The position numbers and the translations under genes are program-made. A DNA stretch of 40,645 nt from a virus: IMG/VR virus record IMGVR_UViG_3300028840_000558; one strand, written 5' to 3'. This document shows positions 1 through 40,645 of this stretch, piece by piece (positions within the stretch are counted from its first letter, which is position 1; every line of letters starts with the position of its first letter). The notes beneath the pieces are model-generated. The model worked only from the letters and a program-made list of their open reading frames with translations, was not told where the DNA came from and did not search any database.

Positions 1-255
1 CCGCAGGTCGGCATACCGCAGGTCGGCACCCTGCAGGTTGGCACTCCGCAGGTCGGCATACCGCAGGTTGGCATACCGCAGGTCGGCATACCGCAGGTCG
101 GCATACCGCAGGTCGGCACCCTGCAGGTTGGCACTCCGCAGGTCGGCATCCCGCAGGTCGGCATACCGCAGGTCGGCATACCGCAGGTCGGCACCCTGCA
201 GGTTGGCACTCCGCAGGTCGGCACCCTGCAGGTTGGCATACCGCAGGTCGGCACC
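1..255. repeat. 17 tandem 15-bp units (ccgcaggtcggcata and variants), the coding repeats of pentapeptide protein B
   Basis: Counted by hand. The period is exactly 15 nt (5 codons), and units differ at only 1-4 positions. Confidence 0.95.
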
Positions 256-606
256 GCAACACCAGCCCAGCCGGATAATGCGCCAGAACACACGTTTACT
301 AACACGTTTCAAGCGGAGTTCCCTCACCCCTACTTTCTCCTTGCTTTCACCAATGATGCCTCGATACTCACAAAACCACGGCCACCAACCGACAGGTGCG
401 TATCGCGCGGATAGTTTCTTCATGACGTGCCACCTGCCCGCTCCACAATCCTTACCATCTGGTTCAGCAGGTTCGGGATGTGTGAGCCACGGACCCCACT
501 TCTCGTCAGGTCTTGGCAGGGGATCTATGGTTTCAACCCCTTCGTATTCCGTCGCCCCGTACTGGTTCAAGAACTTCCAGCCGCGACCATCTATTTTTTC
601 GGTCAT
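1..606 (-). CDS. Pentapeptide-repeat protein B: N-terminal domain plus repeats. The 3' end runs off the left edge and continues at 40358..40645 if the contig is circular.
   Basis: ATG at 606..604 follows an AAGGAGACACA RBS and overlaps the upstream stop (ATGA). Hand translation gives [22 protein letters not shown]...RLGWCCG, then [15 protein letters not shown] pentads down to position 1. It is absent from the ORF track because there is no stop inside the window. Confidence 0.8.
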
Positions 607-1217
607 TGTGTCTCCTTATCTTCTGGCATCCTCGTGTATTCGTTTGTGATAATGCCGCGCAGGTCAGCACCCTCCAGGTCGGCATACCGCAGGTCGGCAT
701 CCCGCAGGTCGGCATACCGCAGGTCAGCACCCTCCAGGTTGGCATCCCGCAGGTTGGCATTCCGCAGGTCTGCATACCGCAGGTTGGCATCCCGCAGGTT
801 GGCACCCCGCAGGTTGGCACCCCGCAGGTCGGCATTCCACAGGACGGCATTCCATAGGTTGGAACCCTTACACCAACCCAACCGGATTACACGCCAAAAC
901 ACACGCTTTGGTACAAGGCGCAACCGCAATTCACGGACCCCAACCTTTTTATCGCTCTCGCCAAAGATGCCTCGATATTCGACGAACCACGGCCACCAAC
1001 CAATGGGCGCGTATTGTGCTGACAGTTTCTTCATCACATGCCAGCGACCAGAACCGCAATCCTTACCATCTGGTTCAGCAGGTTCGGGATGTGTGAGCCA
1101 CGGACCCCACTTCTCGTCAGGTCTTGGCAGGGGATATATGGTTTCAACCCCTTCGTATTCCGTCGCCCCGTACTGGTTCAAGAACTTCCAGCCGCGACCG
1201 TCTATTTTTTCGGTCAT
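603..1217 (-). CDS. Pentapeptide-repeat protein A (204 aa), a paralog of protein B
   Basis: The ORF track shows ...[61 protein letters not shown]. It shares the N-domain of gene B (about 160 nt nearly identical at 447..606 vs 1058..1217). GAGGAGAC RBS. Confidence 0.85.
655..860. repeat. About 13 tandem 15-bp units encoding the pentapeptide repeats of protein A
   Basis: Same ccgcaggt(c/t)ggcaNN unit as at 1..255, but more diverged. Confidence 0.9.
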
Positions 1218-1420
1218 TATGTCTCCTCGATTTTGTGAGTGCTGGTAATATATTTATGTTGTAAGCGGACTACAAACTCTTTATCGCAACCACCCTCTTC
1301 TATGTCGCATATCAATACAAGGGAGGTTGGTCCATATAATTTGCAGGGGAACAGGTAGCAAATAGTTTTTCTGCAATATGGACATTCTAGATTTAGTCTT
1401 ACATCATATTTGTTTATCAT
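1217..1420 (-). CDS. Small Cys-rich (zinc-ribbon-like) protein, 67 aa
   Basis: ORF with CPYC...C...C. Its stop overlaps the start of the next gene (TAATG). Confidence 0.5.
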
Positions 1421-1496: not shown

Positions 1497-2378
1497 CTAA
1501 GGCTGATCGCCCTTCAGCGCCTTAGCCAGCGCGGTTTCTTTTTCGTCGCCTTTATCGCGCCACCCACGATAGAATTTGGCGGCGAGTACAAGTTCCTGAT
1601 CAGAAATCTTGGGCTTTTCTGATTTGATCATGTTCAGGATACTAGCCGCGTGCGCATTATTGCTTGCGGTCCCAGCATCGACCAGAGCTTGAACAACTTT
1701 CGATACGCCGTTGCCGTTAGGTTCTTTTGCTTTAGGTGGGGATTTCTTCACAGTATCGGATGGGGTTTTTGTTTCTACCACTTGGCCCTCAACGGTATCA
1801 ACGGCATCAAACCCGTTTGATGCTTGCCCCATTTCTTCTGCGGTATACAATCCGCTCAACTCTTGGGGAAATGCTTTGCGAAGCGCAAGAGACTCGGCGC
1901 ATTTTGCCAGCATAAGGTCGGGCATTCGTGACCAGAAAACAGTTATACTGCCATCCTTTTTGCACTGTACATAAGAGTCATAACGGGCAACTGCCCAAAG
2001 TGGTTCTGCAAAGCCGGTTTTGAAAACTCCGACCTTGGCGGCAGATGGAGGCTCGTTAGACAACCACACATCCAACCATTCGCCATCTTTGCCACACCAG
2101 AAGGGACCGATTTGACCAGCATATTTTTCTGTCCGATCAGCAATGAGACGAAAACCGTCTATACTGGTTTGAATTGCCATGACCTCTCGTTTCTCTTTTG
2201 AATCCCAGCGTTTGATTGCGTAGATTTGGCGCGAGAAAGGGTCAAGTCCTGTGCGCTCTGCCTGCATGATAAACAATTTCAGTTCATCGTCAGTTGAGCC
2301 TTTGGCAATAGTGCGCTTTATCAAATCAATTTGCTCGTCTGTCATGTGTGTTCGCTGTTGTATTATTTCACTTGTCAT
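1497..2378 (-). CDS. recT: RecT/Bet-family single-strand annealing recombinase
   Basis: Sequence reads ...[23 protein letters not shown]...[15 protein letters not shown]...[14 protein letters not shown], which is typical of RecT. Confidence 0.85.
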
Positions 2379-3362: not shown

Positions 3363-3391
3363 ATTATATACTATTGTAGTTGAATTGTCAA
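3363..3391 (-). promoter_or_regulatory. Consensus sigma70 promoter (TTGACA, 17 nt, TATAAT)
   Basis: The minus strand reads TTGACA (3391..3386), a 17-nt spacer, then TATAAT (3368..3363). It lies about 40 nt upstream of the RHH gene. An inverted repeat GTCAAT-N5-ATTGAC (3387..3403) overlaps the -35. Confidence 0.7.
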
Positions 3392-3454: not shown

Positions 3455-3491
3455 TAGTAAAATGGAAAGACCGCGCACGTTGTACGCGGTC
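3455..3491 (-). terminator. Rho-independent terminator ending the structural operon
   Basis: Minus-strand RNA GACCGCG-UACAACGUG-CGCGGUC followed by UUUCCAUUUUACUAU, about 55 nt after the fibre-gene stop. Confidence 0.7.
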
Positions 3492-22685: not shown

Positions 22686-24236
22686 CTATTTGTCCTTTAT
22701 TTCAATATCACCACATTCCACATCGCCATACTGCTTAATCGCCTTCGGATCACCCTTATAAAATATCAATACGTTTTGATGGGTCTTTCCCAGCTTGCGG
22801 TATCCCTGGAACTGTTTACCAACTCTAATAGTCAACGATCCCACAGCCGTTACTAATATAGCCTCGTTATATAATTCCATACCCGCTCTTTGAAATGCGT
22901 CAATGGTATCACTCACGAAATTACGATAGAATCCTTGTTTATCCCGTAAATCCCCAACCACAAAACAGGCAAAACGATTGTCTTTTAGCATTGATATACT
23001 AGAGGCTACAATAGATCGATATTGGCTTATAAACTCCTCATAAGAACTAAGTGCTGATAATTCTCCGGGCAAATCGCTGTAAATTTCAAGATTGTAATAT
23101 GGTGGACACGAAAAGACAAAATCATATTCTCCTGAAGCCAAATCAATGACATTTATACTATCTCCGACAATCCAAGTTGGAGATAGGTCTAGATTCTCCG
23201 CTTGTTTCTTATTTGCCACTACCTGCTCCGGGCGCAGTTCAATACCTGTATACTTATAACCGAGATACTCGGCCACAATGCCCCGTACACTTCCACCGGA
23301 AAATGGGTCTAATATCATTGCGTTATTGGAGGGACAGAACCAGCGATAGGCGAGTTCGCATAAAACAGGATCAAAGATACTTGTGCCAGTTTGCGTAACT
23401 TCTGCTACTTTTGGCGTTGATTCTGCCGTTCCTCCATGCCATAAATTGCCCTTCAATTGTGATCCTGTCCTCATAAAATCTCGATTTTTATAGTCGCATG
23501 ATAACTCTCCTGGTCCCCCGCTGTTGTAGACAACAGCGGATTGTCGTTGTCTGTCAAACCGCTTCGCAGTTCCTTTCGTGCCACCATAATTTAGCGAACC
23601 ATCAGCATTCTGCGTCACAGTTGGGGGATGCGGGGGTTTGCAACCTTCTCCACGTCCTAACTCACTTTGAATCCCCAACGATAACCAAGCGTTCTTTCGC
23701 TCCTGCCAATATCCCTGACGCGCATCTAGCACACTAAAAGGCGGCACAATAAACCGTTCTGCTAGTGTCTGCGCCCCAGGGTCTTCCGGCGGCTCTTCAC
23801 TATCCCACAGCGTCAAGTCCAGTTCTTGTGGTTCAAAACCCCAATTCAATAAATCATCCACCTCAAAGTTGTTAGCCAGCAGATCAAAATCCCATTCGCC
23901 CGCCGCGCCCTTGTGCAGGAACACAGTCAACTTCTTTCGCTCATCCTCGGTCAGTTCCCTGGATGCAACCCGGCAATCTACCTCATAATCTGGACCATGC
24001 TCGTCAATCCAGACGTTTAGCCGCTGGTGTCCATTGTAAATTTCGTTGTCTGGACCGATAGCGATTGTCTCCACCTGGGAGAACTCATCTAGCGACTGGC
24101 TCAATCGCTGCGCCTGGTCTTTCTTTATTTGGCGCGGGTTTATCGGCCAGGGGATTAGATCGCCTAACCTGCGTTTTTCATTCGTCCAGATAATACCGTT
24201 GCTGCTCACCTCGTACACCTGATAATTCCCCAGCAC
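22686..24236 (-). CDS. ParB-like nuclease domain fused to an N6A/N4C-type DNA methyltransferase
   Basis: The N-terminus has ...IYNGHQRL (ParB-type). The C-terminus has motif I ILDPFSGGSVRG and motif IV FSCPPYYN. The GTG start is uncertain (24236 or 24218). Confidence 0.75.
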   Translation of the reverse strand: MLGNYQVYEVSSNGIIWTNEKRRLGDLIPWPINPRQIKKDQAQRLSQSLDEFSQVETIAIGPDNEIYNGHQRLNVWIDEHGPDYEVDCRVASRELTEDERKKLTVFLHKGAAGEWDFDLLANNFEVDDLLNWGFEPQELDLTLWDSEEPPEDPGAQTLAERFIVPPFSVLDARQGYWQERKNAWLSLGIQSELGRGEGCKPPHPPTVTQNADGSLNYGGTKGTAKRFDRQRQSAVVYNSGGPGELSCDYKNRDFMRTGSQLKGNLWHGGTAESTPKVAEVTQTGTSIFDPVLCELAYRWFCPSNNAMILDPFSGGSVRGIVAEYLGYKYTGIELRPEQVVANKKQAENLDLSPTWIVGDSINVIDLASGEYDFVFSCPPYYNLEIYSDLPGELSALSSYEEFISQYRSIVASSISMLKDNRFACFVVGDLRDKQGFYRNFVSDTIDAFQRAGMELYNEAILVTAVGSLTIRVGKQFQGYRKLGKTHQNVLIFYKGDPKAIKQYGDVECGDIEIKDK

Positions 24237-35375: not shown

Positions 35376-35897
35376 TCAAAGCAGGAACGGATTGATTAAA
35401 TCGGTTTCTTCAATGCTTTTTATCCAATCTACATCCTCATCAGTTAATTGAAACCATTCTCCAAATACACACTTGCCAGCAAACATCTGATGTAAAATTT
35501 TTTCAAGTTCGGAGCACCTCTTTGAGCGGATTTTATGGATCAACATTAAACTAGAGTTTCCCGTAGATGATTGCAGAGCATTAAGACGCTTGCGAATATC
35601 AGTAGTCATTCCAATTTTATATAAATTACGTTCGCAATCTTTGATTAGATAAACATATCCAATGCGTCGTCTTACACCCTTGAAATCATCAAGCAATCCA
35701 AGTTTCTCTAGTTCTGCCACATCGCGTTCAATATTTTCTAGCGACTTATGAGTATAAAAAGCTAGGTCTTCGGAAGTAACCAACTCTTCTTTCCAAGAAA
35801 ATACTAAACAAATTTCAACGAATGTTCGCCACAGCCTGTCGCTCAACGTACCAATTTTGTAGTTATTTAATATATGATGATTAATTACGAGTTTCAT
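35376..35897 (-). CDS. T5orf172 (GIY-YIG-like) domain protein with an N-terminal winged-helix-like region
   Basis: GYVYLIKDCERNLYKIGMTTDIRKRLNALQSS...ELEKILHQMFAGKCVFGEWFQL. Confidence 0.6.
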   Translation of the reverse strand: MKLVINHHILNNYKIGTLSDRLWRTFVEICLVFSWKEELVTSEDLAFYTHKSLENIERDVAELEKLGLLDDFKGVRRRIGYVYLIKDCERNLYKIGMTTDIRKRLNALQSSTGNSSLMLIHKIRSKRCSELEKILHQMFAGKCVFGEWFQLTDEDVDWIKSIEETDLINPFLL

Positions 35898-39650: not shown

Positions 39651-40361
39651 TTACTTTACCCACTTAGCATATACCTTGCCGCGGTAGCGCATTGCGGCGT
39701 ATTGGCAGTAGCCCAACACCATCCAGAGATCGTTGCCATCGGGGAATGAACTGCCTCGTACAAGACATATAACCTCGACCAATTCGCCTTTATTTAGGTG
39801 ATATGTAACAGGGTTAGCAGTTCCTGGTCCAGTACGTATATTCAGGAACGGGTCAGCGGTGATTTCCGCAACGGGCAACTCTGGAAACTGCGGTATTTCA
39901 ATCTCAACTGGTTCCGGTTCCTCGTCAATGCACTTGACCAGGTATGGAGCCGGGTCGATTGGCACTCCATCTTTACGAAGTTCAAAGTGCAGGTGTGGTC
40001 CGGTGCTATTGCCCGTGTTGCCCAAATAACCAACAAAATCTCCGGCTCTGACATCCTGACCTTCGTCAACGACAATATCTCTTAGATGGGCATAAATAGT
40101 CATAAAGTGAATGTTGTGAGCGATACGTACATGATAACCATAGCCAGTTTTAGCCCATCGCCTATCAGATACAACCCCATCAGCCGAGGCAAGTACGGTT
40201 GTTCCCATAGGAGCGCCAAAGTCAACCCCCCCATAGTAATAAACGCCACTCGGACATGGACCAGGCTTATGGCACCACCCATTCACCTTTGCCCACTTCA
40301 CATGCTCCGCAAACGTCTGTGTTATTGGAGCATTTGACGGGACTGGATATAAAAGTTTCAT
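39651..40361 (-). CDS. M23 peptidase with a C-terminal SH3-like domain (endolysin candidate)
   Basis: GGVDFGAP...GYHVRIAH...GNTGNSTGPHLHFELR. The C-terminus is LNIRTGPGTANPV...GELVEV. Confidence 0.8.
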   Translation of the reverse strand: MKLLYPVPSNAPITQTFAEHVKWAKVNGWCHKPGPCPSGVYYYGGVDFGAPMGTTVLASADGVVSDRRWAKTGYGYHVRIAHNIHFMTIYAHLRDIVVDEGQDVRAGDFVGYLGNTGNSTGPHLHFELRKDGVPIDPAPYLVKCIDEEPEPVEIEIPQFPELPVAEITADPFLNIRTGPGTANPVTYHLNKGELVEVICLVRGSSFPDGNDLWMVLGYCQYAAMRYRGKVYAKWVK

Positions 40362-40645
40362 TGTGTCTCCTTATCTTCTGGCATCCTCGTGTATTTATTT
40401 GTGATAATGCTCCGCAGGTTGGCATCCCGCAGGTCGGCATCCCGCAGGTCGGCACTCCGCAGGTCGGCATCCCGCAGGTCGGCATCCCGCAGGTCGGCAT
40501 CCCGCAGGTCGGCATACCGCAGGTCGGCACCCTGCAGGTTGGCACTCCGCAGGTCGGCATACCGCAGGTTGGCATACCGCAGGTCGGCATACCGCAGGTC
40601 GGCATACCGCAGGTCGGCACCCTGCAGGTTGGCACTCCGCAGGTC
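40358..40645 (-). CDS. C-terminal end of a pentapeptide-repeat protein (5' part off the right edge; probably the same gene as 1..606)
   Basis: Hand translation ...[26 protein letters not shown], with a TGA overlapping the lysin ATG (ATGA). The tail is nearly identical to that of protein A (607..655 vs 40362..40410). Confidence 0.8.
   Translation of the reverse strand, partial: DLRSANLQGADLRYADLRYADLRYANLRYADLRSANLQGADLRYADLRDADLRDADLRDADLRSADLRDADLRDANLRSIITNKYTRMPEDKETQ
40412..40645. repeat. 15.6 tandem 15-bp units, continuous with the array at 1..255
   Basis: Units were hand-aligned. The last 144 nt are identical to 1..144. Confidence 0.95.

Follow-up and report, generated by a model that had tools for sequence, protein, structure and literature searches.

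The pentapeptide-repeat proteins that are common in phages are usually annotated as gyrase inhibitors or resistance factors by analogy with MfpA and Qnr, which work as dimers with about 8-10 coils in each monomer. Also relevant are the phage proteins with a DUF7666 domain (Pfam PF24703), such as ES18 gp53. Both building blocks, the pentapeptide repeat and DUF7666, are Pfam entities, neither with an established function in phages. The present analysis concerns two adjacent genes, here called A and B, in a viral sequence of 40,645 nucleotides (nt), IMG/VR record IMGVR_UViG_3300028840_000558 (the window, meaning this whole stretch of DNA). The window is a phage-like genome with a G+C content of 0.50 and nearly all of its long open reading frames (ORFs) on the minus strand. 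The overall best explanation, to which we give a probability of roughly 0.45, is that A and B are old tandem paralogs of a phage-restricted family, in which a conserved DUF7666-like effector head is joined to an evolvable pentapeptide rod. The case shows that the Qnr/MfpA analogy can mislead: the conserved part is here a separate head domain, while the repeat rod varies freely in length.

The gene pair and the window ends comprise the following features:

603-1217, minus strand: gene A, 204 amino acids (aa), with a probable DUF7666-like head, 14 pentapeptide repeats and an 18-aa tail, based on the ORF and on Pfam PF00805 (E 6.3e-26)
870-1217, minus strand: head of gene A (aa 1-116), predicted to be beta-rich, then a helix (aa 104-112) into the beta-helix
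660-869, minus strand: pentapeptide array of gene A, 14 pentads, same-codon fraction 0.83
1-606, minus strand: 5' part of gene B, with the start codon at 604-606, the head at 259-606 and the first 258 nt of the array at 1-258
40358-40501, minus strand: 3' part of gene B, with the remaining array at 40415-40501 and the tail plus stop codon at 40358-40414
40502-40645, unstranded: terminal redundancy, an exact copy of window positions 1-144

An earlier reading, made from the sequence alone (the sequence-only reading), had described adjacent tandem paralogs sharing three parts (head, pentads and tail), and all of these were found in place. The start of gene B overlaps the stop codon of gene A (ATGA), and the gene A product is identical to the database protein P0021. 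Gene B had been taken to continue at the right end of the window; it does resume there, but the window ends are redundant. The last 144 bases are identical to the first 144, which indicates that the genome is closed or terminally redundant and 40,501 bp long (40,645-144, equal to 40,642-141 for contig k141_2597858), with the contig break falling within the 15-bp tandem array of gene B. Naive joining of the ends produced a gene B of 297 aa with a broken pentad register ('RDLRS'), while removal of the 144-bp overlap gave 249 aa in perfect register; the redundancy is a product of assembling a circular or terminally redundant genome and adds no coding sequence. The same 249-aa protein is encoded by an independent MEGAHIT contig (L005, ERZ27256783, 40,642 bp) which has the array in its interior and is 100% identical to the window over 20,615 bases across the junction. 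An end overlap of 54 bp would also close the circle in register, resulting in a gene B of 279 aa. Several ORFs running through the arrays in other frames (38-649, 427-1248 and 513-857 on the plus strand, 533-850 and 724-855 on the minus strand) were rejected as by-products of the stop-free 15-bp unit, because only the A/B frame has homologues and Pfam support; they encode, for example, RRSAYRRLA repeats, and none of them has family support.

The head was modelled with AlphaFold2 as part of the whole protein A (predicted local distance difference test, pLDDT, 93.4; predicted template modelling score 0.85) and alone (pLDDT 93.0). The model is beta-rich, with a long hairpin at residues 75-101 and a helix at residues 104-112 leading into a regular beta-helix. 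The residues conserved among 126 head sequences (protein A numbering) were K11, Y28, P31, H43, P44, D50, C54, G55, G57, H60 and K91, including the signature C-G-x-G-x-x-H, which spans C54 to H60, with C54 kept in 93% and H60 in 94% of the sequences. The mean column identity of the head was 60%, and it is basic, with an isoelectric point (pI) of 9.2 and a net charge of +4 or +5.

A word-indexed search with the head found 20 homologues at 50-73% identity, and a profile search of 1.84 billion cluster representatives gave 136 matches, 106 of them below 1e-10. Nearly all of the 136 family members are 100-350 aa long, with the head at the N-terminus (median start at residue 5) followed by pentapeptide repeats or, in a few members, by SLRDSL-type repeats. 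Between 27 and 252 residues follow the head across the family, some members having no more than about 2-3 pentads behind it. Eight of the nine loci recovered from sequence collections were IMG/VR viral contigs. The ninth (L007, WJJK01000131.1), which was the sole match in 185,579 reference genomes, is a short contig (7.5 kb) binned into a metagenome-assembled genome of a Candidatus Altiarchaeales archaeon; it also encodes a terminase-like protein and is probably a mis-binned phage fragment. The head-plus-repeat family was found to be restricted to phages. The head had no match in Pfam, PHROGs, NCBIfam or PADLOC and none in the PDB by sequence profile search, the best PDB match by Foldseek had an E-value of 1.3 with a template modelling (TM) score below 0.21, and no match among 50,697 phage records was obtained by tblastn with either this head or a distant one.

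The N-domain had been called unknown in the sequence-only reading. It is not an orphan but a probable remote relative of DUF7666, itself an uncharacterised domain, and the structural and profile comparisons proposed at the time (Foldseek, AlphaFold, profiles) led to this family and to no well-characterised one. In a viral structure library, the top Foldseek matches of the head were DUF7666 proteins (TM 0.55-0.61, root-mean-square deviation, rmsd, 2.9-4.2 Å), with a probability of 0.99-1.0 for the best five; these top matches included DUF7666 proteins of Hyperionvirus, of Pseudomonas phage PspYZU05 and of a podovirus, together with a 'Pentapeptide' protein of a Rheinheimera phage. PspYZU05 gp55 is a true PF24703 protein (E 2.7e-19). 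Distant members of the head family had sub-threshold PF24703 matches spanning the whole model (12.5-18.3 bits, E 0.003-0.2). For profile comparison, seven DUF7666 domains were gathered from cultured phages by tblastn of phage records. The alignment of 126 heads matched these seven domains in hhalign with a probability of 92.2% (E 5.9e-7, 91 columns), placing the head CGxGRxH on the DUF7666 CxSGFH, and the distant subgroup matched them with a probability of 77% (E 2e-5). The distant-subgroup profile reached no protein annotated as PF24703 in a set of 5.8 billion proteins, and the DUF7666 domain of PspYZU05 used as a query found no candidates. Judged from these models and alignments, the A/B head is probably a divergent member of the DUF7666 superfamily missed by the Pfam model.

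The likeness to DUF7666 proteins (compared were ES18 gp53, PspYZU05 gp55 and Ralstonia phage Hyacinthe 8G_00057) extends beyond the head. In both groups the head is N-terminal, measures about 95-115 aa and bears the motif K...C-x-x-G-x-H, the predicted fold is shared (TM 0.61), and a tandem array of short peptides follows whose copy number varies between close relatives; both are encoded in early operons beside recombination genes. In contrast to canonical DUF7666, the A/B heads have an inserted PLPxPxEKWGPWxxHPxP segment and are without Cys17 and Cys44, their repeat is the canonical A(D/N)LXX pentapeptide instead of a 9-residue SAATNTGxx type, and the conserved C-terminal domain of the '...HIRASKVGENG...' type is missing. 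ES18 gp53 (L017, 2486-3334) has 282 aa with a head, 11 SAATNTGxx copies and the C-terminal domain; the copy in Salmonella phage S135 (L023, 1486-2145) has 219 aa with 4 repeat copies, and that in phage Emek (L024, 1486-2074) is frameshifted. In all three phages the gene follows directly after an N-like antiterminator and precedes c3/kil/(arf)/erf in the early-left operon, ES18 gp53 lying between the antiterminator and cIII, kil, erf and ssb. Short repeats of other kinds occur in the DUF7666 proteins of Pseudomonas, Ralstonia, Acinetobacter and Clostridioides phages. A head that is conserved and a repeat rod of variable length, encoded together in an early operon beside recombination genes, thus form a general pattern, of which the window family is the pentapeptide variant.

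Some further DUF7666 records were seen along the way. The record of Ralstonia phage Raharianne (L025) ends inside the DUF7666 repeat array, and the copy in Acinetobacter phage fLi-Aba03 translates with X residues in the repeats. In the T4-like PspYZU05 (L016, 33437-35661), the 536-aa protein has its DUF7666 domain internally (residues 93-185) rather than at the N-terminus, and its gene adjoins one annotated as phosphatidylinositol-4-phosphate 5-kinase-like, for which there was no Pfam match. The predicted structures of the 'Pentapeptide' protein of Rheinheimera phage vB_RspM_Barba28A (A0A4P8NLD3, TM 0.55) and of a Microcystis phage MaMV-DC protein (A0A075BV24, TM 0.47) also match the head, at 10-14% identity and without being retrieved by the sequence profile; by its name, A0A4P8NLD3 may share the head-plus-pentapeptide architecture.

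The pentads are uninterrupted in both genes, 14 in A and 23 in B, and were recognised by the Pfam pentapeptide model PF00805 with 90 bits in A and 137.6 bits in B (E 8.4e-41), far above the cut-off of 20.2. Tandem Repeats Finder placed 15-bp arrays at 1-253, 658-850 and 40412-40645, with scores of 225-338 at the 15-bp period and up to 408 at longer periods of the same arrays. In gene B, the same amino acid at the same pentad position was encoded by the same codon in 875 of 875 comparisons (fraction 1.00), compared to 0.29 expected from the codon usage of the phage; for gene A the fraction was 0.83 against an expected 0.28. The array codons GCC and CGG are not those preferred by the phage. The near-identity of the units in B, considered unusual for pentapeptide proteins in the sequence-only reading, is real but not unique to B: homogenised arrays with same-codon fractions of 0.998, 1.0 and 1.0 were present in the family members at loci L008, L010 and L013, respectively, in contrast to old diverged arrays at L001 (0.56) and L012 (0.37). 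The DNA core GCC-(G/A)AC-CTG for Ala-(Asp/Asn)-Leu is common to the window, L010, L011, L013 and L015, which may stem either from shared ancestry of the amplified unit or from biased mutation or selection; the L008 array uses GCA and that of L014 uses GCG/AAT/CTC.

Length variation was observed directly. Further gene B alleles were gathered by exact-protein look-ups, and a strain that is 99.6-99.99% identical (ERZ27256790) was found to carry a 214-aa gene B with 16 pentads instead of 23, resulting from in-register losses of 5 and 2 pentads, together with point mutations elsewhere. A JGI fragment, the third data set, has the allele of the window for the last 87 codons of gene B, and an exact 30-mer from gene B had no match in the JGI metagenome and IMG/VR collections. 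The suggested recent expansion and length instability of the B array is therefore supported both by the codon identity (1.00 against 0.29) and by the 23- and 16-pentad alleles, and the repeat-number polymorphism that had been proposed as a check does occur between near-identical strains.

It might be argued that the difference in repeat number and part of the array homogeneity are artefacts of short-read assembly. The window itself breaks inside the array and has a 144-bp redundant end, the alternative 54-bp overlap closes the circle equally in register (279 aa), and contigs from two further runs stop 26 nt short of the array, which fits a repeat that is hard to assemble. However, the longest exact repeat within the array is 73 nt, and with an assembler k of 141 correct assembly of both alleles was possible; moreover, the 249-aa allele was recovered with the array in the interior of an independent 100% identical assembly and its 3' 87 codons in the JGI sample, the 214-aa allele has clean in-register losses in a strain marked by point mutations elsewhere, and similar length variation exists in the DUF7666 genes of cultured phages. 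The artefact explanation is on balance distinctly unlikely.

Even less credit, indeed almost none, can be given to the possibility that the arrays act mainly as DNA (as origin iterons, a packaging site or a recombination hotspot) with coding being secondary. The 37 near-identical 15-bp direct repeats (14 in A plus 23 in B) do lie near replication and recombination genes, and several family members share the core GCC-RAC-CTG. Against this, the reading frame is conserved across the 136 cluster representatives with the head under strong purifying selection, the units differ between phages at synonymous positions (GCA in L008, GCG/AAT/CTC in L014), in the old arrays of L012 and L001 the protein motif has outlasted the DNA identity, and the GC skew shows no switch at the array.

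Comparison of the two heads (116 aa) gave an uneven picture: there were 2 differences in the first 161 nt, in agreement with the 'about 160 nt almost identical' noticed earlier, and 52 in the next 187 nt. The ratio of nonsynonymous to synonymous divergence (dN/dS, Nei-Gojobori) was 0.11 over the whole head, indicating purifying selection on both the A and the B head. The synonymous divergence (dS) was 0.06 in codons 1-54, while in codons 55-116 synonymous sites were saturated (proportion of synonymous differences, pS, 0.77). Such a combination implies an old duplication with recent homogenisation of the 5' end, and points to gene conversion or mosaic exchange as its likely route; a recent duplication is ruled out by the saturated sites in the 3' half of the head. 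Two tandem copies were seen in the window phage only, among the family loci examined. The tail IITN(E/K)... is present in both proteins. Within its last codons is the sequence AAGGAGACACA-ATG, serving the next gene as ribosome-binding site and overlapping start (ATGA); this may partly explain the conservation of the tail at the DNA level.

Recognisable genes of the window include recT, a DnaB-like helicase, a C5 DNA methyltransferase, a ParB-methyltransferase fusion, the large terminase, the portal, tape-measure-like proteins and an M23 peptidase. Those around the A/B pair are:

3469-3491, minus strand: terminator-like hairpin with a 10-bp stem, 7 G-C pairs and a T-rich tail (consensus scan only)
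3363-3391, minus strand: sigma-70 consensus promoter-like site TTGACA-17-TATAAT, 12/12 (consensus scan only)
1497-2378, minus strand: recT, single-strand annealing protein (Pfam RecT E 2.3e-31; PHROG 2780 E 3.3e-74)
1217-1420, minus strand: 67-aa Cys-rich zinc-ribbon-like gene (CPYC...C...C), whose stop overlaps the start of gene A
39651-40361, minus strand: M23 peptidase with an SH3-like C-terminus (Pfam PF01551 E 4.7e-32; SH3_3 2.7e-4, below the Pfam cut-off)

The early operon next to recT postulated from the sequence agrees with this arrangement. The terminator-like hairpin follows a tail-fibre-like gene and the promoter-like site comes next on the coding strand, followed in order by small genes, recT, the 67-aa Cys-rich gene, A, B and the M23 peptidase; overlapping stop and start codons link the last four, the stop of gene B overlapping the ATG of the peptidase gene. 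It is likely that the hairpin closes the late operon and the promoter-like site starts the one with recT, A and B, and the consensus suggests that the latter depends on the host sigma-70 RNA polymerase. The 67-aa Cys-rich protein had no confident library match and a single borderline one in PHROGs (E 0.0097). Homologues of A and B were also located in otherwise unrelated phage backbones. In L008 RecT lies upstream of the homologue, and in L012 a Rad52-like gene lies downstream; in L014 the homologue has a PD-(D/E)XK nuclease on one side and an SNF2 helicase, Dam methylase and primase on the other; in L011 it is followed by an SNF2 helicase; and in L001-L004 it heads a primase-DnaB-PolA-RecA operon. 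The family is recurrently placed in replication/recombination modules.

The coupling of B to the peptidase gene allows another explanation, namely that A and B are envelope or lysis accessories working together with the M23 peptidase/SH3 protein, for instance by scaffolding, regulating or chaperoning a peptidoglycan hydrolase. In its favor, a GH25 muramidase is encoded about 3 kb downstream of the L008 homologue, with a C-terminus resembling that of the window M23 protein. On the other hand, most other family contexts are replication/recombination modules without a nearby lysin, the A and B sequences have no signal peptide or membrane segment, and the canonical DUF7666 genes lie in lambdoid early-left operons and not in lysis cassettes, which makes an envelope role very unlikely. 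As to the M23 protein itself, the identity between its C-terminal 73 aa and the end of the GH25 muramidase from the unrelated phage locus L008 is 44%; the two may share a cell-wall-binding module, and their hosts may have similar envelopes.

The repeat part of both proteins is predicted to form a right-handed quadrilateral beta-helix with four pentads per coil. In the AlphaFold2 model of A the array has a pLDDT of 95-97 with one strand residue per 5 residues, and the tail has a pLDDT of 54 with no helix after the array. The closest structural neighbors are cyanobacterial: in a Foldseek search of A against the PDB, Np275 and Rfr23 matched at E of about 3e-6 with an rmsd of 0.4-0.9 Å over 80 columns, and the repeat part of Np275/Np276 (2J8I, 2J8K), Rfr23 (2O6W) and Alr5209 (6OMX) superposes with A at 42-46% identity. 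Gene B also scored 122.9 bits with the Alr5209 model, with a cut-off of 125. Unlike A and B, these are cellular proteins and have no DUF7666-like head.

MfpA, Qnr and AlbG are, like the predicted rods of A and B, right-handed quadrilateral beta-helices of pentads. From the likeness to Qnr and MfpA the sequence-only reading had suggested, as inference, a DNA mimic acting on a host enzyme such as gyrase, a nuclease or a restriction or defence complex. In its full form, the beta-helix would imitate B-DNA and block gyrase (as Qnr and MfpA do), RecBCD/AddAB (as does lambda Gam, encoded beside the Red genes) or a restriction/defence complex, thereby shielding DNA ends and recombination intermediates. 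The fold shared with MfpA, QnrB1 and AlbG according to Foldseek would fit, as would the apparent early operon in the consensus scan and the recurrent location by annealing proteins and nucleases (RecT, Rad52-like, PD-(D/E)XK). The position of A and B by recT resembles that of gam beside bet and exo in lambda and of abc beside erf in P22. A Gam-like role would be the most attractive version of such a mimic. The comparison in detail did not sustain the proposal. With the NCBIfam models, A and B reached 27 and 37 bits for Qnr (cut-off 240) and 36.6 and 46.7 bits for MfpA (cut-off 360), that is 27-47 bits against equivalog cut-offs of 240-360. Their rods, of about 3.5 coils in A and 5.75 coils in B, are about half as long as those of MfpA, Qnr and AlbG or less, and they have an extra large N-terminal domain, no dimerisation helix and no Qnr loops; the A model shows no C-terminal helix of the tail-to-tail dimer kind after the array. 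The rod surface alternates Asp and Arg and, judged by net charge, would be nearly neutral (net charge of the repeat part plus tail -3 in A and -4 in B, pI 4.85; whole proteins pI 7.6-7.7), the repeat part has a mean net charge of -1.4 over the family with 35% of the members net positive, and the head is basic. Finally, some members have only about 2-3 pentads yet a conserved head. DNA mimicry by A and B, including its Gam-like version, is considered unlikely. The PADLOC models of known anti-phage defence proteins matched neither A and B nor the neighboring small genes.

The explanation preferred here, conserved head and evolvable rod, can be put together as follows. In both proteins the basic head of about 115 aa would pack on the N-terminal end of the right-handed pentapeptide beta-helix, with a short unstructured tail at the other end. 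Host RNA polymerase probably transcribes A and B from the consensus promoter as part of one translationally coupled operon with recT and the M23 peptidase. The DNA-identical 15-bp units would gain and lose copies in frame, through slippage or unequal recombination, giving rods whose length varies from strain to strain and over the family, with a range of about 2 to about 50 pentads. The head would be the functional, target-recognising module, because it is conserved while the rest of the protein varies between 27 and 252 residues, down to about 2-3 pentads; it may hold a metal via H43, C54 and H60. The rod, in turn, may be a rigid and quickly evolvable spacer or a secondary binding surface. 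Since no signal peptide or membrane segment was detected in the A and B sequences, the proteins should act inside the cell, presumably early in infection and as stoichiometric binders of a host or phage factor tied to DNA metabolism or defence, and the two paralogs may cover two variants of such a target.

Several points weigh against this explanation. The profile of the close family alone was weakly related to DUF7666 (E 0.05), which makes the link transitive and structural, and A, B and 22 close homologues had no match to PF24703 even at E up to 10 (cut-off 27 bits). No characterised homologue bears on the function, a search of 8 million papers found no mention of DUF7666, and the literature on phage pentapeptide proteins held annotation-level remarks only. 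In 13 of the 126 sequences Ala takes the place of the candidate metal ligand H43. Short-read assemblies are the source of the repeat polymorphism, and several assemblies break at the array. Early timing is drawn from the consensus promoter scan only, and the translational coupling to the M23 peptidase could point to a cell-wall-related role.

New relative to the two Pfam entities are the probable placement of an orphan head in the DUF7666 superfamily, the repeat-length polymorphism that was observed directly, the history of the A/B pair (an old duplication plus conversion) and the finding that DUF7666 heads, encoded in early operons, as a rule bear hypervariable repeat rods. The DUF7666 link ties an orphan metagenomic family to genes of well-studied and genetically tractable phages (ES18, P22-like), where the position of the gene between the antiterminator gene and c3/kil/erf makes its function directly testable. 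A broader proposal, still speculative and doubtful as it stands, is that DUF7666-headed proteins are a widespread unrecognised class of phage early-operon effectors acting on the host, for example in counter-defence or host takeover, with heads fused to interchangeable solenoid rods. The rods would be of pentapeptide, SAATNTGxx, NTGNH or SLRDSL type and their length a contingency-locus-like, fast-evolving trait; members of the class would occur in Salmonella P22/ES18-like, Pseudomonas, Ralstonia, Acinetobacter and Clostridioides phages and perhaps in giant viruses as well; and A and B would be two specificity variants, kept apart by selection and partly homogenised by gene conversion. If such a general early-gene module exists, it would represent a new kind of rapidly evolving phage-host interface and would explain why phage assemblies often break at these genes.

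As to the host of the window phage, no tRNAs were found in its genome, and the portal protein was at most 30% identical to that of any cultured phage. Elsewhere in the window, a 516-aa protein in which a ParB-like nuclease/partition domain is fused to a DNA methyltransferase is encoded at 22686-24236 (minus strand), just upstream of the large terminase gene, and a T5orf172/MUG113 (GIY-YIG-like) protein at 35376-35897 (minus strand; 15822-16343 in L005), between the C5 methyltransferase and the DnaB_2/DnaB genes, may be a homing-endonuclease-like insertion. The phage of about 63 kb with the homologue P0011 has a second pentapeptide gene, headless and of 225 aa, divergently upstream (L001 8367-9044 and L003 1035-1712, both minus strand). 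This gene is absent from L002 and L004, which represent the same phage in other samples and have in the adjoining position an ORF of 449 aa (L002) and one of 209 aa (L004), neither with a Pfam match; the site looks like a variable region.

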